Positions 3,306 through 38,343 of a DNA stretch of 41,064 nucleotides are shown here, one piece after another (the first letter of the stretch is position 1; each line of letters begins with the position of its first letter). The DNA lies in assembly GCA_000934665.2 (NCBI GenBank), contig JYFJ02003473.1, positions 1 through 41,064 on the forward strand, in the 5' to 3' direction. A model generated the notes under the pieces. That model did not search any database and was not told where the DNA came from. It was given only the letters and a program-made list of their open reading frames with translations. The position numbers and the translations under genes were made by a program. The stretch is from Catajapyx aquilonaris. Taxonomy: Eukaryota.

Positions 3306-6300
3306 GATCTAACGCACCCAACAAACCTCTCTGCGAAGATATCTGTTTTTTCTTAACCCGGATATGCCAGAATTATTTTGTGTGTTAAATCTTTTAAATA
3401 TTTTCCATTTTATGAGAAAATGAAGAACTAACTTGTGCTATATAATTACATGGGATGCTAGGCTTGAAATCAAGCCTTCAAATGGATACCAGATCACAGT
3501 TTTTTATCCAGTTCCTTATGGTCACAACACCAAAAGCACAAGGTTTCATGAGTCTCTCGATCTTTTTATCTCATTAGCTGCTTTCAAAGCTTGAGATCCT
3601 TCCTCCGTTTGAACTCATGTCTCTCCAGGAGTTCTCTTGACGGTCCCTGCTTTCTGGTCTTAGAGCAAAGGGGCCAATCCCTTTTGGAGTCTACACTTTT
3701 GGAGGTTGGGGTCGGAGGAAAAGCGCGCCTTGCCAGGCAGTCACTATCCTTTATCATTAATGACGTGGCCATCCAGGAAATCCTCCGCAGCTTCTCTCTT
3801 ATAGTGCTCAGCACCCTTTCCCTCCAGAAAGAGCATCCAAGTGGAGAGGAGCAGCAGCCCTTATATATAGATATATAGGAAAGGAAAACTTAAGACCTCC
3901 GCCTTAGGGTTTTGATAGTGGTCTGGTTGAAAGAGCTAAAGTATCGCGCAGCTGACGGTTTTCCTGCTGCCACGATGGATGTTCCCCGTCAGAAGACTTC
4001 ATAAAGTTAATGCAATTCTGCCACATGTCCTTGTTAGCGTTTGGTGCTCATCATAACGAAAGACGGGGGGCCCTAGCTTGCTTTTTGCCCCGATGAACCT
4101 CCATGGAAATTCCCTGGCTTTAATATGTAACCTTTTATGCAACGACTCAACTCGGGTGGAAAAATACAGTTCCAGTCGTTAGTACCGAGTTTGCTGGAAT
4201 TGAATAAGAGAGTTGGGTGAACCGACGTTATTCCTGTGGGAATGAACAAAAAAAATTGGGGGGTGTTTTGACTAGGTGTGCACCGGGTTGTATTAAAGTT
4301 TGCGGTTATATTTATGTAATGTTTTGTTGGTTTGTTTTTTGGGGGGGGGGGCCATGTGGGCGGAATTTCACAGGTGGTGCCTTTTTGGACTTTTGAGGTG
4401 TGCAAACTCGATTGCTTTCATGCTGCAGCAACGCGGGTGTGGATTTACTAGGTTTCAGTGTATTTCCGTCCAAATGGGTTTGGCATTCTCAGGCTCTGAT
4501 GCAATTTATTGCAAAATCCTCTTCATTAATTCATATCGGCGAGTTCCAAAAGTGATTTGCAGGGAGAGGTCACCCAGCTTTACTCGAGCTTTTTTTAACG
4601 AAAACAACGGCCCCGAGCTAAACTCTCCTTAATGCAACGCATTAACCGGTATGCGACCTTTTCCTTCCGGCTTTGTTACACCAAAAATGTACATTTTCAC
4701 AGCCCTTGCTAATCTCTAATTCAATTTGGGCCATGGCTCTACGGATAATTTTAAGTCTAGTAAATTAATATTTGCAAGTGAACATTATTTGTTATAAAGA
4801 TTATCTGAAAATCTTCCTGATTATCCATAAGAAATTCTGCTGTAAGACGAAACATTAGTGAAGATTTTCGGAATATTAGACAATTCTGAAGCATTTTTAA
4901 CGTAGAAATTCTGTATCTGAAGCAGAATAAGTCTGGCACAGAGGCAATGAGGTGACGTGTGACATACACCGTAGGGTTTTCCTGTACAAAAATGTCAAAC
5001 CTGCCCGAGACTGGCCCGAGGGATCAGTTCATGCTAATTCCAAAAAAATTGCAATTACCCGAGTTCGGTGTAATTGTTTTGGTTTTGTTGTTCTTGGATA
5101 AGACACAAAAAAGACTTGATTGTATCCCTCCATGATTTGATCCCAACCGAATCTGTAGAGTGAAACCCTCTCCCTGGAGTGGAGCGCATGCTGTGCGTTC
5201 CATTTCCTTTCATCGGACGTTCAGCATTATCTTCCAGAACTATTTTTCTTCCCTTAAGCCGGCAGCCTGGGCTCGAGTTGTTATTCGCTTACGGAAGAAA
5301 AAGCCTCGACCCTGCTTTCAATCGATTTCGACTTAAACACTCGGCTGGGTTTGTGTTATGAGACAGCAGCTCCTCCATCTCCATCCGGCCAACCCACATC
5401 ACGTAACCTGTCTTCTGCTTTCTTTTCTTTTTATTCGCTTTCAGGAGACCGGTTTCTCTCTCTCTCAGTAGATAAAAATATATGCTTATAATAATGCTGC
5501 AAGTGAGCATGATGCGGGTCACACAAGGCTGGTCTGGTCAGATTGGGTGTGTTTGCATCTCTCTGCAAACCCAGGCCCGGGACTCTATTTCATAGGCAAA
5601 CAAGGCTAGTTGGGGAAACTTTCCGGGGGAAGTGAGAGATGGAAGGTAGAGGAAAAGAGAAGGTTTTGTGTGTCCTCAGCCTAGTTTGTGCAGAGGCTTC
5701 TGAGGAGATTGGATATTCTGAATTGTTATCTTCCTCCCAACGCTAGTCGTGCGATGAACCAGGCCAAAATCTGGGGGTTCTAATTTGAACCTTGGATGCA
5801 AATTAGGCCTCAGGCGCCGGACCCTCCCTCTAAGTACATAATCACTTCCATTACACTTTACCACCTGTGCATGTCAAGGCAATGACGCTATGGTATCACT
5901 TCGGTTAATACAGTTTAGCCTGAGGAAGAATAAGAGTTTTTTAAATTCCACGATACATTTCAGCAAAAAATGGGGTCATCGCAGAGCTCAGATGAAGAAA
6001 TTCAATGACGTCTTGTCATCTGATGAAAAGGTGCAATTCAGTACGAACCGAGAGGGAAATCGAAATCGCACTATTACCCTACTCAATGGGTCTTGAATCC
6101 CACCCACCTAACCACCCCCCCTTTTTCTTACAACCCAATGTCGTCTTCCAATATTCCGCAGAGGACTCCAGTCAGGCAAAGGGTAGAACTATGCGAATTG
6201 AGAGGATTTTTCTCTCGAGGATCAAAAAAGTCGCATGGAGAGAAAGAGACGATTGTTCTCAGAAACGAGACTGCTTGTTGCTATGCTCTTACATGACACA

Positions 6301-21923: not shown

Positions 21924-21968
21924 GATGAGAAGAATCAAATCCTAACTACAAATATTTGGTTAAACATG
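21924..21968 (+). CDS. nAChRalpha6: nAChR exon 3 (loop D), single copy, 3a-like
   Basis: ttccttccag| DEKNQILTTNIWLNM |gtaagt; 45 nt. Confidence 0.95.
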
Positions 21969-27330: not shown

Positions 27331-27568
27331 GTGAGTCCAAGGGTTCGTCTTAATATGTGTGTATCCCTGAGGTGCGACTTGCTGTTGGAGTGAACGCCTT
27401 GGTGAATGTGGACTCGCTCTGAAAGAAGACACACTTGTTGAAATCCACATTTAAAAAAAATAATTAACAAAAATTCTTTTGAACCATGTCACTCTTTCGA
27501 GCGAGACGTGAGTTTGGTTGTGGGCAGCCTTTGTTTTGACTCTTGGTCCCCATGACCTTCTCCATTAG

Positions 27569-27763
27569 GAATGCCCGGTAAGCGCAACGTCATCTACTAC
27601 CAGTGCTGCCCGGAGCCTTACGTGGACGTGACTTTTACCATCCACATTCGGCGGCGGACCCTGTACTACTTTTTTAACCTCATCGTCCCCTGCGTGCTCA
27701 TCTCATCCATGGCCCTGCTCGGCTTCACACTTCCGCCCGACTCTGGCGAGAAGCTGACGCTAG
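27569..27763 (+). CDS. nAChRalpha6: nAChR exon 7 (loop C with vicinal Cys-Cys, M1, start of M2)
   Basis: tccattag| [64 protein letters not shown](G) |gtaaat; 195 nt. YxCC marks an alpha subunit; GEK is the cation-selectivity motif. Confidence 0.97.
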
Positions 27764-28558
27764 GTAAATCGCCCCCAGCAGAGGTCGGTGCTGTCACTTT
27801 TCCTTATCATTCAGCCAACCAAAAATCAAGACTCTATATTTCAAAAAAAATTAAAATTAAAAAATGGCGCAGAGGCGATTTTGGTAACTATTTTTCAAAG
27901 TGTGTTTGTTGTGGCCACGGATGCAGTCGCGAAAGAAAGAAAAAAATAGCAAAATATTTTTTCCATGGCCCATAAGAGCAGCACTTGTAGTGGTTGTTGG
28001 GTGCTGTTCCCTCTGCTGCTGCGCAACTCGTCAGTAGTGTGTAGTGTGAGACACTAATACACACTTTTAGAAGTTTTGTAACCCTTGCAGCCAACACGAC
28101 CCAATGGCTGGGACACGCCCAGGGATCCACGACGCGAGCAAATTTTTAGCACTTGGCAAAATATGGGCACAGACGACAAAAGAAATTTGGGAGAGACAGA
28201 AAATGTATAGTCTTCCAACACGAGGCAGCATCTACACCGGGGGAAGACAAACCGGAGGACAAAAAAAATATATATTTCTATATATTTTTCAGTCGAGGGC
28301 ATTTATTACACAGCGTAGTTTACACCTTTTTTTGGGAGCCGGTAGTAGTACTAGTTTCAAATTTTTAATCCATCTTTTACGCAGGAAGAGTCGCCGTTTT
28401 TAGCTGGAACCGTTGTGCGGACCCCGTCAGACTACGTTTTTGGGGATTAAAAAAGAGGTTTTGTAGGACAAAAGAAAACACATGTGTTTTGTGATCGAGC
28501 ACAGCAAGGTTTCCCCCTCTCATTTTGCTCATCCACTTTGATCGTTTTGAATTTGCAG

Positions 28559-28645
28559 GAGTCACCATTCTGCTTTCCTTGACTGTGTTTCTCAACTTAG
28601 TTGCGGAAAAGATGCCCACCACTTCAGACGCGGTTCCGCTCATAG
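28559..28645 (+). CDS. nAChRalpha6: nAChR alternative exon 8a (M2 and M2-M3 linker)
   Basis: atttgcag| (G)VTILLSLTVFLNLVAEKMPTTSDAVPLI(G) |gtacgg; 87 nt; MPTTSDAVPLI resembles insect alpha6 exon 8a. Confidence 0.93.
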
Positions 28646-28724: not shown

Positions 28725-28746
28725 TTGATACTTGGAGAAAGGGGGT
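28725..28746 (+). promoter_or_regulatory. Candidate selector sequence for exon 8a
   Basis: TTGATACTTGGAG (28725-28737) is the exact reverse complement of 31593-31605; GGGGGT (28741-28746) can add 6 bp with 31584-31589. Confidence 0.7.
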
Positions 28747-30142
28747 TTTTTGGTAGCACTTGTAGCTAGAGCAATTTTGGTTTTGATTTTTTGTCGGTAG
28801 GCAGTGTGCTTTTTGTGTTTGGTTTTTTGTGCCAGCCCCGATGCAACCGCACAATGTGTTTTTGTTACAAGCCCGCGACCAAGATTTTCAAATAATATAA
28901 AATGAGAAAAAAAAGCAAATATGTGACAGGAATCGCGCGATGACCCGAAGCGACGCTGCTGGGCGTGAGTGTGTATAAATGTGATTGGTGTGCGTGCGTG
29001 TCTGTTTTTGTGGGTATTTTTGCCTCCCGTTCCAGTTGTGTACACGTGCACGGTGGAGCCGACTACGTAACCGCTGCCTTCTTCTCCCCTTTATCTTCCC
29101 ACCAATGGTGAAGTATCATGGCTGCCAGAAGTGGGGTGTGGTGGGGTGTGGGACTCTATGTCTCGCTCTTGCAAAAAGAAAATGGAGAAAAAACATATAT
29201 AAGCGAATCCCTCCACGGTCTGTAGAGATGGACGTCGGTTGGAGGACACTCACAAAATGCATTAGTTGCATTGGTATCTAAACTGCTGGTCATATATGTG
29301 CAAAAAAGAATGGTTCTGACATAAAAATTGCAAGATTTTGGGTCAATTATGCCAGCCAGTTCAGATTGTTTATGGAAGCTAACAAAATCTCAGGTAAGCA
29401 TTTATAAATACGTGCAGTAGTACCAATATGACATAATTTTTATATCTTTGTGCTTTGTATATTTTTCCGAGCAGGTGGTGTGTTTAAATTCGCAACAAGT
29501 TTAATAATACCGAGCAATTTTTAGAGGTCTGCTTCACGACATCGTACACTGAGCAAAAAAGTTGAAAAAATATTTTTGACTCTGCTGCTAACAAACTGCT
29601 TGGTAAAATAAATGGACGAAAATTTTTCCCCCATTTTTCCCACCCTTCCTTGAGAGGTGTCCAGCTGAGGCTACAATATTGTGCCCCTACCTGCTACCTC
29701 ATTGCCCATGGGCCGATCAACATGATTTGCTGTCGACACAGTTCAGTCCTCTGCCAGAAATTTCAACCTCCCTTTAATGAGCCCCTGGGCTGCACGAAAC
29801 TTTGCCATTAGCCTGTGGAACAAGTATACGATCTGATGATGGGTTCCTATTGTTAATTTTGGCCAAGACGCATGGCCTTGTTTATAGAGTTGAAGAATTG
29901 GCCTCAAATTTTGTCATTTTTATGTCGACGTTATGCACGAATTGGGCCAGTGTTTTAGCTGCTACCGATACAACTCAATGTAGTGTTAACTGCCCTTGAC
30001 TGCCCCAAATCCATTCCTAGAGACCGTGTCGCTCCCTCCGTCCGTCACCCCCCCCCCCCNCTCTCTGTCACACACACCCCCACCCCCCCTGCAGACACCA
30101 TGCAACAGAGCCAGCTAAGCCTTTGCACTCTCTCAATTTCAG

Positions 30143-30229
30143 GCGTCACCATCTTACTTTCGCTGACCGTGTTCCTGAACCTCGTGGCCGAGACCCTCCC
30201 CCAAGTGTCCGATGCCATCCCGTTGTTAG
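30143..30229 (+). CDS. nAChRalpha6: nAChR alternative exon 8b
   Basis: aatttcag| (G)VTILLSLTVFLNLVAETLPQVSDAIPLL(G) |gtagag; 87 nt; matches insect alpha6 exon 8b as I recall it. Confidence 0.95.
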
Positions 30230-30298
30230 GTAGAGGACCCTGTTTGCCGCTGTGTCGCTCTTGGCGTTTCGTTTCCCCCTCACTCCACACCAACTGTG

Positions 30299-30320
30299 TG
30301 ATACTTGGATTGCTGGAGGG
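30299..30320 (+). promoter_or_regulatory. Candidate selector sequence for exon 8b
   Basis: TGATACTTGGA (30299-30309) pairs with 31594-31604 and TGGAGGG (30314-30320) pairs with CCCTCCA (31585-31591): 18 Watson-Crick pairs. Confidence 0.7.
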
Positions 30321-30428
30321 ACGAGATCGGATAGCCCTGGATTATATAGCACTTCCTTATTATTATTATACTGTTCAAACTGAGAATAGAGAGAGAGCTC
30401 TCATATTATAGCTCTCTCTGCTGAGCAC

Positions 30429-30451
30429 TATTATTATTATTATTATTACAC

Positions 30452-30485
<34 letters not shown>
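30429..30485. repeat. Compound (TAT)n/(CTA)n microsatellite between exons 8b and 8c
   Basis: About 6 TAT units followed by about 11 CTA units. Confidence 0.95.
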
Positions 30486-30489
<4 letters not shown>

Positions 30490-30558
30490 TTACCTACTTT
30501 GATTGAGAGGAGTTTTTTGCCGCTCTTTTCAAACTTGGCTGCATTTTGTTCGTTCCAG

Positions 30559-30645
30559 GTGTTACAATCCTGCTGTCTATGACAGTTTTCTCCCACCTGG
30601 TGGCAGAGGTCTTGCCCCAGTCTTCCGACGCTATCCCCCTTATAG
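30559..30645 (+). CDS. nAChRalpha6: nAChR alternative exon 8c (divergent M2)
   Basis: cgttccag| (G)VTILLSMTVFSHLVAEVLPQSSDAIPLI(G) |gttagg; 87 nt, open, same phases as 8a and 8b; not represented in this frame in the ORF track. Confidence 0.9.
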
Positions 30646-31583
30646 GTTAGGATGATTTTCTGGCCTTGGTTTTCACGACCTGTGACTGTATATTTACCGC
30701 ACGGAACCTGCATTTTGCAAACATACGGGATCTTATCTCACTCAGCATTATGTACTATACTTATATACATACTTATTATTATTACTTACCTACTATATAT
30801 TTATTAGAGTATATATATACCAGCACAGACGCCTATATATATATACCCACCGGAAACCTAGGTTTCCTTTTCGAGTTTGGTTACTCACTTAGGCAAGATT
30901 CCATTTTTAAACCTGTTGTTTGCAGCATGAGGCAGTAGGTTCCAGCATGTTTTCGAACGATGCGAACTTGGTCCGTAAGCTTACGTTTTTCCTTTTTCCA
31001 CGTCTCGACCTTGGCTTCGACTTCTTCGAGCATGAAGAACGGTCTGGCTTCCTTGTTTCTTTCCAAATACCAAGCCCCCAACAGCCCCATGCCCCCCTTA
31101 TATGAGAAAAAAAATTTACCAAAAAAATAAACCTATCGACTGGCCCGCCAATATTCTCTCTCTCGCTCTCATTCTTATGTCTATATTTTTTCTATCTTTC
31201 TCTATTTCTCTAACCCAGCTTGCCCGCCGAAGAGCCGCGCGGCTGCCGCATCCAAAACAAAAAATACCCCAAAACCCCAAAAAAGAGAAAAAAAAATTGT
31301 GCCCCCCTTACCCCCCCACAAGCCCCCTCTTTTTCTATCTTCTCTGTCTTTTTTCTCTCGAATCTTTGCCTTCGATCTCTTTGCTGTCGCTCCAGTTTTT
31401 TCACATTTTTGATCGTACATCCATTTTACAGGAGCCATCGCTGGAGGATTACGGGAAATGGGAAGATTTTTCGCTCTTACCGACAGGATTTTACACAGCG
31501 AAGGCCTTTTTTTGAAGCCACGAGTAGCGAATAATTTTAGCTACTGGTAGTTTATAGATGACACTAGTAAAATTTTTCGCACC

Positions 31584-31605
31584 ACCCTCCACCTCCAAGT
31601 ATCAA
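31584..31605 (+). promoter_or_regulatory. Candidate docking site for mutually exclusive exon 8 splicing
   Basis: ACCCTCCACCTCCAAGTATCAA is complementary to both selectors through the same core TCCAAGTATCA. Confidence 0.7.
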
Positions 31606-32491: not shown

Positions 32492-32601
32492 GCACTTATT
32501 TCAACTGCATCATGTTCATGGTAGCGTCGTCGGTGGTACTGACGGTCGTTGTGCTCAACTATCATCACAGAACGGCTACCATGCACGAAATGCCTCCATG
32601 G
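32492..32601 (+). CDS. nAChRalpha6: nAChR exon 9 (M3)
   Basis: aatttccag| (G)[36 protein letters not shown] |gtgagt; 110 nt. Confidence 0.96.
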
Positions 32602-32779
32602 GTGAGTCTAATTCCTTATAGTCACGAACGGCATCCTTCCACCTCCGCTTTGTTTCATCCTGGCATGATGCAACCCAACGAACACGCTTTGTATTTGCTC
32701 ACTCTTGAAGAGTAAACATCATTGTCTGTTGTGAGTGTCTTTTATAGTCTAGTAATGTTGTCGCCTCTTCTTCCTCCAG

Positions 32780-37044: not shown

Positions 37045-37143
37045 CTGCGCAGGCACGGATTAACTTTGGTCAAAAACAGTTTATCTTGTATCCAGAGAGA
37101 GAAATAATGAAGTTGGTTTATCGTTTATAGATAATATTTTGAC

Positions 37144-37599
37144 CTCATTTTCGGGGTCAGGTTGCTGCAAGACGACAACTGTGAGCGACATCTTCTCGTA
37201 GACCATGTGCCAAAAGTGTTGCTGGGTGTGGGGCAGAGGCAGCTGGGTGGCGATGAAGCGGTCCTTCTGTTGGTATCCTTCTACTGAAACTGTACTGATA
37301 AATTGCCTGCGTTGGGCCTGGTTCGTGGAGGAGATGGTGATCAGGCCATATGAAGGGGGGCAAAAGAGAGGCTCTTGGGTCAGCTCCTTTACCTCGGGAA
37401 AGAGAGGCCCATGGTAGGCCAGCATTTTCTCCCTTTCTCTCTCCAGCTTCTTGTACTGCCTCTCGTGTTCCTGCTGGACCCCACTTCCTGCAACATCTCT
37501 CACGAGGTGGAATTGAGACTTGAGCTCGTTGCAAGGCATACTGTAATTCTCTCCGAACAGGATCTCACACAATGTGACATGCGCACACTCGTATTGCTC
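37144..37599 (-). CDS. RPTP exon: end of D1, linker, start of D2
   Basis: ttaacag| EQYECAHVTLCEILFGE...VEGYQQKDRFIATQLPLPHTQQHFWHMVYEKMSLTVVVLQQPDPENE |gtcaaa; FIATQxP and FWxMV motifs. Confidence 0.9.
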
Positions 37600-37675
37600 C
37601 TGTTAAGCAATAATAACCAGGTACACACAGTGTAAACATTCTCTGTAGAATAATTAGCCACGGTTAATTCCTTAA

Positions 37676-37811
37676 ATATTTGTTCACCAGGTACATCCTG
37701 TTTTTCCTCATGATTCCAAGTTGCTTTGGGAAATCAACCATCCCGACTGCAGATACCGTTTTGAGCATTGTGTCCAGCAGGATGAAAGTACCGGTGTTGC
37801 CAACTCCTGCA
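37676..37811 (-). CDS. RPTP D1 exon, second half of P-loop (3' boundary uncertain: 37676 or 37688)
   Basis: ggtgcag| (T)AGVGNTGTFILLDTMLKTVSAVGMVDFPKQLGIMRKNRMYLVNKY; the homologous boundary reads |ttaagg, and an alternative canonical donor lies 12 nt earlier. Confidence 0.85.
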
Positions 37812-37875
37812 CTGCACCAAGGATAATAATATTGTATGTAAGAATTTCATTATTCTGCTGAAGATATTAGCTCAC

Positions 37876-38003
37876 GTGCAGTGGACGAGTATTGGTCCTG
37901 GTCCAGAAGGAATCAGGCTCAGCTTTTTAGCGAAAGATGCAACAGACTGCGAGTAACTAGGAACTCGGAGGTCTGGCCAGGTTGTGAAATGAGCGTGGAT
38001 CAA
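37876..38003 (-). CDS. RPTP D1 exon, WPD loop to VHC
   Basis: attgctag| LIHAHFTTWPDLRVPSYSQSVASFAKKLSLIPSGPGPILVHC(T) |gtgagc; 128 nt. Confidence 0.92.
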
Positions 38004-38065
38004 CTAGCAATTTCACAAGATTAAGTGACACATTCAATGGTAAAAGAAAGTATCTCTTTGATTAC

Positions 38066-38209
38066 CTGTCGTTCTTCTCCACAACGTTGAATAGTGAAGT
38101 GACGGATGGCATAGTCAGCCAGAATTGTAGAGGTTTTGTTCCATCGAACATTTATTTCATCAAATACTTCGGACTTGTTATCGTCAGGCCAATATTGTAA
38201 GCATTTTCG
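38066..38209 (-). CDS. RPTP D1 exon (KCxxYWP); further upstream exons not found in the window
   Basis: tttttaaag| RKCLQYWPDDNKSEVFDEINVRWNKTSTILADYAIRHFTIQRCGEERQ |gtaatc; 144 nt. Confidence 0.9.
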
Positions 38210-38343
38210 CTTTAAAAAGATCCCATTTCTAGCATGCAAATAATTTAAAGTATGGGACGCAAAAGAAGTTGCAAGTTAATCAAGCCTTTTATCCAGCACC
38301 AAATGATTTTCCCAGCATCTATTCCAAGAATAATAAATTCATA

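Follow-up and report, generated by a model that had tools for sequence, protein, structure and literature searches.

A candidate docking-site/selector system of competing RNA structures at the TM2 exons of an alpha6-type nicotinic acetylcholine receptor gene

A candidate RNA switch among three pore exons

A downstream docking-site/selector system of competing RNA structures probably acts on the TM2 exon of an alpha6-type nicotinic acetylcholine receptor (nAChR) gene in Catajapyx aquilonaris; we put the probability of this candidate mechanism at about 70%. The gene lies in a 41,064-nt genomic stretch (contig JYFJ02003473.1), referred to here in its entirety as the window. We observed the sequence elements of such a system, their non-random arrangement, RNA contigs in which each of the three exons is used, and the recurrence of the arrangement elsewhere, including one compensatory change.

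In the model that we propose, three tandem 87-nt TM2 exons (8a, 8b and 8c) would be used singly, and a dock in intron 8c-9 would pair with either selector A or selector B, never both. Whichever helix forms in a pre-mRNA molecule would loop out the exons between selector and dock, thereby bringing the donor just upstream of the paired selector near the acceptor of exon 9. Helix A would lead to inclusion of 8a and helix B to inclusion of 8b, with 8c being used when no helix forms. Physical pairing in vivo, the direction of its effect and the exclusion of upstream exons are the parts of this model that we infer.

The receptor gene and its alternative exons

Judged by its domains and closest protein matches, the gene in the window is an arthropod alpha6-type nAChR gene. 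It encodes both the Cys-loop ligand-binding domain and the transmembrane domain characteristic of alpha6/alpha7-type receptors (PF02931, E = 5.4e-21; PF02932, E = 7.4e-17), and the peptide of exon 7 contains YYQCCPEPY, with the vicinal cysteines of loop C. The best protein matches to a C-terminal open reading frame of 163 aa are 65-73% identical and derive from Carausius, Bovicola, Periplaneta and others. All are insect proteins named nAChR alpha6 or "alpha-7-like" at source, and there is no near-identical protein among the matches. The alpha6 nAChR is the target of spinosyn insecticides, and its exon 8 encodes the pore-lining TM2 helix. We also sought the paired alternative exon 3 (3a/3b) found in insect alpha6; a simple pattern search, which a diverged second copy could escape, returned one exon-3-like copy, at 21924.

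The exons and pairing elements are collected in Table 1. RNA contigs supplied the edges of exon 7: loose ends at 27566 mark its 5' side, and GT..AG joints leaving 27761 (+2) mark its 3' side. A preliminary description of this DNA had proposed that the three exon 8 variants are 87 nt long and in phase, and their coordinates, AG/GT borders and common frame bear this out. The three encoded peptides are similar, all beginning VTILLS.

Table 1. Exons and candidate pairing elements of the exon 8 cluster, in window coordinates
Feature	Position	Strand	Basis
Exon 7, constitutive (loop C with vicinal Cys, start of TM1)	27566..27763	+	Open reading frame, peptide, PF02932
Exon 8a, alternative (TM2), 87 nt	28559..28645	+	AG/GT borders; joints 7->8a, 8a->9 (runs X5, X7)
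Selector A (candidate): 13-nt core 28725-28737 and second helix arm 28741-28746	28725..28746	+	Motif search, pairing
Exon 8b, alternative (TM2), 87 nt	30143..30229	+	AG/GT borders; joints 7->8b, 8b->9 (run X6)
Selector B (candidate): 11-nt core 30299-30309 and second helix arm 30314-30320	30299..30320	+	Motif search, pairing
Exon 8c, alternative (TM2), 87 nt, without selector behind it	30559..30645	+	AG/GT borders; joints 7->8c, 8c->9 (run X6)
Docking site (candidate): C-rich arm 31584-31591 and core 31593-31605, complementary to both selectors	31584..31605	+	Intron 8c-9
Exon 9, constitutive (TM3)	32492..32601	+	Open reading frame; joints into 32490 (+2), out of 32600 (+1)

Public RNA contigs show how these exons are used. 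Their junctions, all GT..AG, comprise 7-8a-9 in runs X5 and X7 and 7-8b-9, 7-8c and 8c-9 in run X6; each of 8a, 8b and 8c is spliced to exons 7 and 9. The three 87-nt exons and their contig joints fit a tandem array of homologous alternative exons with one variant per mRNA. Joints of the 8a->8b, 8b->8c or 8a->8c kind are not listed in the four RNA runs; contigs cannot prove absence, so we attach no evidential weight to this.

Two selectors and one docking site

The exact 11-mer TGATACTTGGA occurs at 28726-28736 (+) and 30299-30309 (+), and its reverse complement at 31594-31604. At no more than one mismatch, and counting the reverse complement, the window contains no match beyond these 3, which places a single candidate dock in the intron next to the cluster. 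The selectors start 81 nt past the end of 8a and 70 nt past the end of 8b, and the dock lies in the 8c-9 intron, 949 nt downstream of 8c and 888 nt upstream of exon 9. These values agree with the preliminary description, which had put the 11-mer about 80 and about 70 nt past the 8a and 8b donors and its complement downstream of 8c, with no further copy in the cluster. The layout it proposed is present: each of the two non-terminal exons has a selector behind it, and a single dock that both would share lies in the last intron. Its pair of exclusive helices (13 bp plus 6 bp for 8a, 11 bp plus 7 bp for 8b) was recovered as well. In predicted helix A, the 13-bp stem is followed by a 3x3 internal loop and the 6 bp, which include one G-U; in helix B, a loop separates the 11-bp and 7-bp stems. 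Selectors A and B, next to different exons, share overlapping dock bases, and because both helices would occupy the dock at 31594-31604, they are mutually exclusive.

Selector A and the dock are covered at single-copy depth (20.4, in contigs of the probable source DNA run), so the 11-mer is not the common dispersed repeat that the preliminary description had considered as an objection. The distance of 2.9 kb from selector A to the dock counts against the model. In run X6, contigs at approximately 90-95% identity span selector A and the dock. Among the differences listed for these divergent contigs are 28739, 28740 and 28745, which would displace the second helix by a single pair and keep it if the dock is unchanged; we offer this as a remark on consistency only.

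Behind 8c, the best candidate selector reaches only -5.5 kcal/mol against the dock, a lack that fits the idea of 8c as the default exon. Scanning 30646-31100 for pairing with the dock yielded at best -12.7 kcal/mol. A decayed third selector was considered on the basis of a weak likeness, by eye, at about 30716-30735, and was rejected at the same -5.5 kcal/mol. We found no element that would keep 8a out while selector B pairs, and this includes a search of intron 7 for an upstream dock: introns 8a-8b and 8b-8c share only an 8-nt word with its reverse complement, a length that is unremarkable when set against the shuffled introns of the main triad test, the intron 7 test itself having been run without shuffles.

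Chance expectation and pairing energy

The triad arrangement is far beyond chance. No dinucleotide shuffle (0/2000) gave a word of at least 11 nt common to introns 8a-8b and 8b-8c and complemented in intron 8c-9; the longest shuffled triad word was 10 nt, reached in 2 of the 2000. A second shuffle run returned 0/300, and the window's 5 triple-shared 8-mers were equaled in 0/1000 shuffles. An alignment statistic for a common dock (30-nt windows), which copes poorly with gapped two-part helices, gave 0/40. Pairwise complementarity is ordinary: the 13-mer between introns a and c was reached in 106/2000 shuffles and the 11-mer between b and c in 181/2000. Three or more matches at no more than one mismatch, anywhere in the window, occurred in 7/100 shuffles.

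That pairwise runs lie within chance is one argument for regarding the elements as accidental, or as a neutral and functionless relic of the duplication of an exon with its flank. Similar selector offsets could remain from a tandem duplication, and by arithmetic from the intron lengths about 0.1 occurrences of an 11-mer confined to introns a and b would be expected. The longest word directly common to introns 8a-8b and 8b-8c is 11 nt, the length of the selector core, and its offset behind the two donors is nearly equal; the report of this position counts for the pairing model. The triad shuffles argue against a chance or relic origin, as do the flanks of the two selectors, which look unlike apart from the core when compared by eye, and a distant locus (L042, below) that has the same motif and layout though its introns cannot be aligned with those of the window. 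We consider an origin by chance or as a relic very improbable.

Predicted pairing energies are compatible with selective helices without distinguishing them on their own. The selector-dock duplexes reach -30.8 and -30.7 kcal/mol in 35-nt contexts. In cofolding with 120-nt contexts, where local structure was allowed to compete, the selector A windows are the best dock partners among 23 windows of intron 8a-8b (gains of -38.2 and -31.4, the next being -20.7), and the selector B window is the best among 7 windows of intron 8b-8c (-19.3). The preliminary description had proposed RNAduplex as a check; a scan of 40-nt windows did not single out the helices, the selector-dock duplexes ranking 4th of 26,426 and 5th of 5,249. 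Duplex energy by itself is not exceptional in these introns, and we dropped it as a criterion because G-rich/C-rich tracts ranked above both helices. A further candidate stem flanks 8a (28387-28421 with 28846-28881, -35.1 kcal/mol).

Relation to known systems

Downstream docking-site/selector systems were reportedly first described by Yang et al. in 2011. The exon 4 and exon 9 clusters of Dscam1 are also of the downstream-dock type. Other such systems include 14-3-3zeta, Mhc and MRP1, as summarized in the accessible text of Ivanov & Pervouchine 2018 (PMC6071210). As far as that summary goes, the arrangement in the window resembles them in having tandem homologous exons used singly, one dock past the end of the cluster, selectors located in introns that follow variable exons, and shared dock bases that would make the helices exclusive. 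It differs in that the host gene encodes a Cys-loop ion channel, that the variable exon encodes TM2, and that there are two candidate selectors for three exons with none behind the last. The principle of competing selector-dock pairing also links it to Dscam1 exon 6 (Graveley 2005, via the available portions of PMC6071210 and PMC1919356), where the layout is mirrored, with the dock upstream of the cluster and a selector before every one of many variants. We rejected an array of that kind, with a selector per variable exon, for the window, given the pairing values obtained behind 8c (-5.5 kcal/mol; scan best -12.7 kcal/mol). In human ATE1, according to the part of PMC7797038 available to us, two intronic elements likewise compete for one partner at mutually exclusive exons (7a/7b); this vertebrate gene differs in having two exons and additional ultra-long-range helices, and has no sequence relation to ours.

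The helices might instead form but act otherwise, by repressing the neighboring donor, by driving back-splicing of the looped-out exons or solely as a substrate for double-stranded RNA editing. The direction of the effect in our model derives solely from analogy, and selector A and the dock flank 8b plus 8c in the sequence geometry of inverted repeats around circularized exons. The possible extra stem around 8a further suggests that other structures may contribute. Set against these points, no back-splice or strand-change joint is listed in the four RNA runs, from which contigs cannot prove absence, and the layout matches the downstream-dock systems in the portion of PMC6071210 cited above. 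We give such alternative actions little credence.

The closest precedent by gene is insect nAChR alpha6, which belongs to the same family, has the same exon 8 a/b/c cluster and undergoes alternative splicing of exons 3 and 8 (Jin et al. 2007, PMC1919356). The available part of that paper cites competing base-pairing as a general mechanism only; it contains no intronic helix for exon 8, and the word "docking" is absent from it. We found no report in the literature searched that ties nAChR alpha6 exon 8 to docking/selector pairing, consistent with the preliminary description, whose author was unaware of one, and the searchable open-access sources offer no cis-acting explanation of how 8a, 8b or 8c is selected. 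The kind of mechanism is known; its occurrence in an alpha6-type nAChR gene appears to be new, in that we could not find an earlier report.

If the model is true, the dock and selectors constitute a switch made of testable, mutable elements that set the ratios of channel isoforms. Mis-splicing of alpha6 has been tied to field resistance (PMC2792709 and PMC5111602, in the portions available). An ion-channel gene would also join the short list of genes with competing RNA structures, which for D. melanogaster comprises Dscam, MRP, Mhc, srp and 14-3-3zeta in the accessible text of PMC6071210. Both the conservation and the turnover of pairing sequences would then be traceable across arthropods.

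Recurrence in other loci

When we compared the exon 7-10 region of the window with 80 other loci by blastn, the only intron similarity was microsatellite. The introns of L042, an unrelated metagenome contig from a distant species whose exon 7 protein is 83% identical to that of the window, are equally unalignable. L042 nonetheless has the 9-nt core TGTTACTTG at +244 behind exon 8.1 and at +165 behind exon 8.2, each copy followed by a purine-rich block with GGAGGAGG, and complements of both core and block in the last intron. Its predicted duplexes have energies of -39.3 and -40.5 kcal/mol, and its triad is nominally significant (5/300 shuffles; 6/1000 by 8-mer count). Selector 2 of L042 is the best match to a probe made from the window dock, a result reached in 0/400 shuffles; the L042 dock alone is insignificant against the window probe (182/400), selector and dock together give 18/400, and the common-dock alignment statistic (30-nt windows) gives 18/40. 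At core position 3, all three window elements have A and all three L042 elements have T, which would keep the pair. By sequence comparison, conservation with compensatory change is limited to this one position and two species.

TACTTG is invariant in 9/9 aligned elements from three species, as would be expected of a binding site for a splicing-regulator protein acting on each intron, with the inverted copy in the last intron being either incidental or another type of site, and with no role for RNA-RNA pairing. The unexceptional duplex energies are compatible with such a site. Yet in the window, L042 and L021 alike, it is invariably the last intron that holds the third copy, on the opposite strand; the second block is complementary too, and the dock carries the counterpart of the A-to-T change. 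A further lineage (L028/L032, below), in which the same architecture has an unrelated core, fits pairing better than a fixed motif. We judge a protein site without pairing to be unlikely and the docking-site/selector model the better account of these features.

The preliminary description had called for conservation in related species. L042 provides the layout, the motif and the one compensatory change; L002, the closest locus by exon sequence (protein identity of 95% for exon 7 and 96% for exon 8a), has no triad (124/300 and 821/1000 shuffles). The triad of L014 is nominally significant in one test (4/300 shuffles) and insignificant by 8-mer count (56/1000). In L021, pairing by the TACTTGG copies is weak (-17.7 and -20.2 kcal/mol), and these copies may be coincidental; the locus has a stronger triad of its own (0/1000 shuffles by 8-mer count; 1/40 by the common-dock statistic). 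The flanks of L014, L021, L015, L012 and L023 are too diverged, or mutually too close, for footprinting. A pattern combining the exon end with the selector had 0 matches among metagenome contigs, and the exon 7 peptide had no relatives among prokaryote genome contigs.

From these comparisons we draw a tentative evolutionary reading, to which we give slightly less than even odds. The two-part helix, in which a TACTTGG core and GGAGG-type arm would pair with a CCAAGTA core and C-rich arm, may be an ancient RNA code for choosing the alpha6-type TM2 exon. It would have been compensatorily retained in arthropod lineages with unalignable introns and replaced elsewhere by unrelated dock/selector pairs of the same architecture, such that sequences turn over and the mechanism is conserved.

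L028 and L032 are a third lineage with the same layout and a different conserved core. The sequence CAACCATTT lies behind exons 8.1, 8.2 and 8.3 in L026, L028, L030 and the related L032. The last intron of L026, L028 and L030 holds its reverse complement; the L032 sequence stops short of that intron. For L028, the 8-mer count is insignificant (102/1000 shuffles), and the common-dock statistic is 4/40. Between L028 and L032, the introns are unaligned apart from two non-exon matches. One is 79% identical over 47 nt, and the other, the sole non-exon match at 100%, is a 16-nt island that holds the selector behind 8.2.

TM2 exon cluster and its inverted intronic words

A Cys-loop receptor gene lies on the plus strand of the window; its ORF pieces match the Pfam families Neur_chan_LBD and Neur_chan_memb, and its exon 7 peptide contains the vicinal cysteines typical of an alpha subunit. 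A 163-aa C-terminal ORF is 65-73% identical to insect proteins named nAChR alpha6 or "alpha-7-like" by their sources; one centipede protein and one barnacle protein reach similar scores, and no near-identical protein was present in the collection searched. Downstream of the receptor gene, ORFs on the minus strand (37081-38275) resemble pieces of another gene and, judged by eye, suggest a tyrosine-phosphatase-like protein.

Three alternative exons, 8a, 8b and 8c, share one frame and encode similar TM2 peptides, in keeping with the preliminary description of 87-nt, in-phase exons. Each of the two non-terminal exons is followed by a copy of an 11-mer (selectors A and B), and the reverse complement (dock) lies once downstream of 8c, as had been described. 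The claim that no further copy exists also held: at up to one mismatch, both selectors and the dock are the sole matches in 41 kb. The helices have the makeup first proposed: helix A pairs 13 bp and, past a 3x3 loop, another 6 bp; helix B pairs 11 bp and, past a loop, another 7 bp; and the two occupy identical dock bases. No selector was found behind 8c, where the best candidate pairs with the dock at only -5.5 kcal/mol. The dock core (31593-31605) resembles the intronic part of the metazoan 5' splice-site consensus minus its first two bases, so the selector core would resemble the 5' end of U1 snRNA. This might hint that a decayed donor gave rise to the dock, or that U1 binds there as well.

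Coordinates of the exon 8 cluster, its pairing elements and candidate counterparts at related loci
Feature	Position	Strand	Detail
Exon 8a	28559-28645	+	87 nt, AG/GT borders
Exon 8b	30143-30229	+	87 nt, AG/GT borders
Exon 8c	30559-30645	+	87 nt, AG/GT borders
Selector A core, TGATACTTGGA	starts 28726	+	81 nt behind 8a
Selector B core, TGATACTTGGA	starts 30299	+	70 nt behind 8b
Dock core, reverse complement of TGATACTTGGA	31594-31604		949 nt behind 8c, 888 nt before exon 9
L028 CAACCATTT	6839, 8053, 8708; 11106	+; -
L032 CAACCATTT	5702, 7446, 9374	+
L021 TACGTACAAC triad	4676, 6452; 10097	+; -	behind non-terminal exon 8 copies, complement in last intron
L014 ACATTTAGCAT triad	5146, 6040; 8053	+; -	behind non-terminal exon 8 copies, complement in last intron

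All three exons are used. Four of the seven public sequencing runs found were compared with the window. Exons 7, 8a and 9 are joined in contigs of runs X5 and X7, and 7, 8b and 9 in contigs of the metatranscriptome X6, which also holds 7-8c and 8c-9 joints. Every joint is GT..AG at the predicted borders; those in X6 have short sides of 27-29 letters, and contigs as evidence cannot prove that double inclusion is absent. Unspliced contigs of divergent sequence in X6 also cover selector A and the dock.

Significance of the triad

The feature is real and non-random. A word of at least 11 bases common to introns 8a-8b and 8b-8c, with its complement in intron 8c-9 (a triad), arose in 0/2000 dinucleotide shuffles (maximum 10, in two shuffles), and the five triple-shared 8-mers of the window introns were matched in number in 0/1000. 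The claim that the 11-mer exceeds chance therefore stands for the triad but not pairwise: the 13-mer complement between introns 8a-8b and 8c-9 was reached in 106/2000 shuffles, and the 11-mer complement between 8b-8c and 8c-9 in 181/2000. At least three window-wide matches at up to one mismatch occurred in 7/100 shuffles.

The helices did not stand out by duplex energy, proposed earlier as a check; G-rich/C-rich tracts score better, and the helices come 4th of 26,426 and 5th of 5,249 window pairs. When dock pairing was scored by cofolding with 120-nt contexts, such that local folding competes, selector A windows were the top dock partners in intron 8a-8b (gains -38.2 and -31.4 versus -20.7 for the next, n=23), and the selector B window was the best of seven in intron 8b-8c (-19.3).

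The 11-mer might instead have belonged to a common dispersed repeat, which the preliminary description had named as grounds for rejection. In the DNA run that is probably the source, contigs cover selector A and the dock at single-copy depth, so the elements are not part of such a repeat.

Recurrence at related loci

With the exon 7 peptide as query, 165 relatives emerged from metagenome contigs; 80 of them were kept (L001-L080), and none has intron sequence in common with the window. Most stayed outside the triad tests, having zero or one exon 8 or being spliced, cDNA-like contigs. Five loci with at least two exon 8 copies and then a last intron were tested (L002, L014, L021, L028 and L042). 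L040, with a single non-terminal intron, entered one test only; L026 and L030 share the arrangement of L028 and were not counted apart; L015 and L032 come without the last intron, L032 serving just for comparison with L028.

We take L042 to be the decisive locus for the docking-site/selector reading. Its exon 7 shares 83% identity with that of the window, and the final of its three exon 8 copies is of the "TVFS" type, like 8c. A 9-nt core, TGTTACTTG, lies at +244 behind its first copy and +165 behind its second, and in both places a purine-rich block with GGAGGAGG comes next; the last intron holds the reverse complement of both core and purine-rich blocks, giving duplexes of -39.3 and -40.5 kcal/mol. 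This triad was found independently of the window (5/300 shuffles for longest word, 6/1000 for 8-mer count). Its motif nonetheless follows the window's nearly base by base: by hand count, selector 2 agrees with the complement of the window dock at 19/23 positions. The sole core difference is an A in all three window elements and a T in all three L042 elements, with the pair kept. Against the window probe, the L042 dock alone was not significant (182/400 shuffles), selector and dock together gave 18/400, and a 30-nt-window statistic was not significant (18/40). Conservation with compensation, suggested earlier as a check, is seen in L042, which has the same layout and one compensated A/T change. 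In L002, whose exons are the most similar to the window's, no triad was detected (124/300; 821/1000 shuffles).

Separately, an extra short intron following the Q codon seemingly interrupts exon 8b of L002 (3341-3565). Tandem exon-7-like copies occur in L042 (1743-1934 and 2966-3157) and L040 (1111-1302 and 2185-2376), with 58-62% protein identity between copies, which suggests a putative alternative exon 7 cluster in this lineage.

Other lineages carry different words. CAACCATTT follows the first three exon 8 copies in L028, L026 and L030 and in the related L032; the last intron of the first three loci carries its reverse complement, L032 ending before that intron. The L028 triad reached 3/300 shuffles for longest word; its 8-mer count was not significant (102/1000). 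Between L028 and L032, whose introns are otherwise hardly alignable, only one match outside exons is 100%, an island of 16 nt holding the selector behind 8.2; the one other such match reported is 79% over 47 nt. This alpha6-like cluster has six variants, CAACCATTT being mostly followed by GA, and no such selector was found behind 8.4 or 8.5. L014 has a candidate triad (4/300 for longest word, 56/1000 for 8-mer count). In L021, TACTTGG copies are arranged [+, +, -] with weak pairing, and a partly palindromic core, TACGTACAAC, forms a stronger triad of its own; L021 is ambiguous as support for a shared motif, and we count it as support for the architecture. It is possible that the two-part helix is ancient and that the gene family as a whole uses the architecture. 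In the alpha6-like contig L017, 13 nt at 3428 (plus strand) match the selector consensus (TGTTACTTGGAGG); the match lies ~1.6 kb upstream of exon 7, outside any exon 8 cluster, and may be chance.

Proposed mechanism

The analysis shows that two selectors behind the non-terminal exons share one overlapping dock, that all three exons are used, and that the arrangement recurs with one compensatory change. The best reading, to which we assign a probability of about 70%, is that an alpha6-type nAChR gene chooses among its TM2 exons by a docking-site/selector RNA switch, the layout first proposed. The downstream-dock systems treated in the available part of Ivanov & Pervouchine 2018 (PMC6071210) serve as the model for looping in this cluster. 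By analogy, a selector-dock helix would loop out the intervening exons and favor joining exon 9 to the exon directly upstream of the paired selector; with no helix, 8c would be used. An upstream dock that could keep 8a out when selector B pairs was not found in intron 7, where the longest shared word, 8 nt, is of ordinary length judged against the shuffles of the main triad test. Steric hindrance is unlikely, intron 8b-8c measuring 329 nt, and nonsense-mediated decay (NMD) cannot remove double inclusion since the exons are in frame.

The earlier impression that such pairing is undescribed for nAChR alpha6 exon 8 agrees with the full-text literature searched, although supplements of Yang et al. 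2011 and Hatje & Kollmar 2013 might predict it. The accessible portion of Jin et al. 2007 (PMC1919356) mentions competing base-pairing only in general terms, as a mechanism, and does not use the word "docking". For D. melanogaster, the available part of PMC6071210 names Dscam, MRP, Mhc, srp and 14-3-3zeta as genes in which competing structures have been reported.

Other structures and assembly features

Exon 8a is flanked by complementary segments (28387-28421 and 28846-28881, -35.1 kcal/mol) whose pairing would loop it out, a possible candidate stem; the upstream arm lies within a block (28361-28424) that is alignable in a divergent X6 contig, unlike its surroundings. The tracts that outrank the selector-dock duplexes in energy scans pair a G-rich stretch of intron 8a-8b with C-rich stretches of intron 8c-9 (29126-29153/31304-31334, -36.4 kcal/mol); by eye, the former may also be complementary to a poly-C/CA tract just upstream of 8b (30040-30095).

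Within intron 9-10, 32635-32696 is a high-copy dispersed repeat, with a depth of 1647 versus ~20 elsewhere in source DNA contigs and numerous loose ends. The window's single N (30060) falls inside a poly-C run. Source-run contigs are interrupted at ~30048 and again from 30417 to 30495, an interval with ATT and TAC microsatellites in which a repeat (30418-30494) is skipped, and a perfect inverted repeat spans ~30388-30420. A separate contig of low depth (6.37) carries exon 8b and selector B and matches the window except for 25 gap letters.
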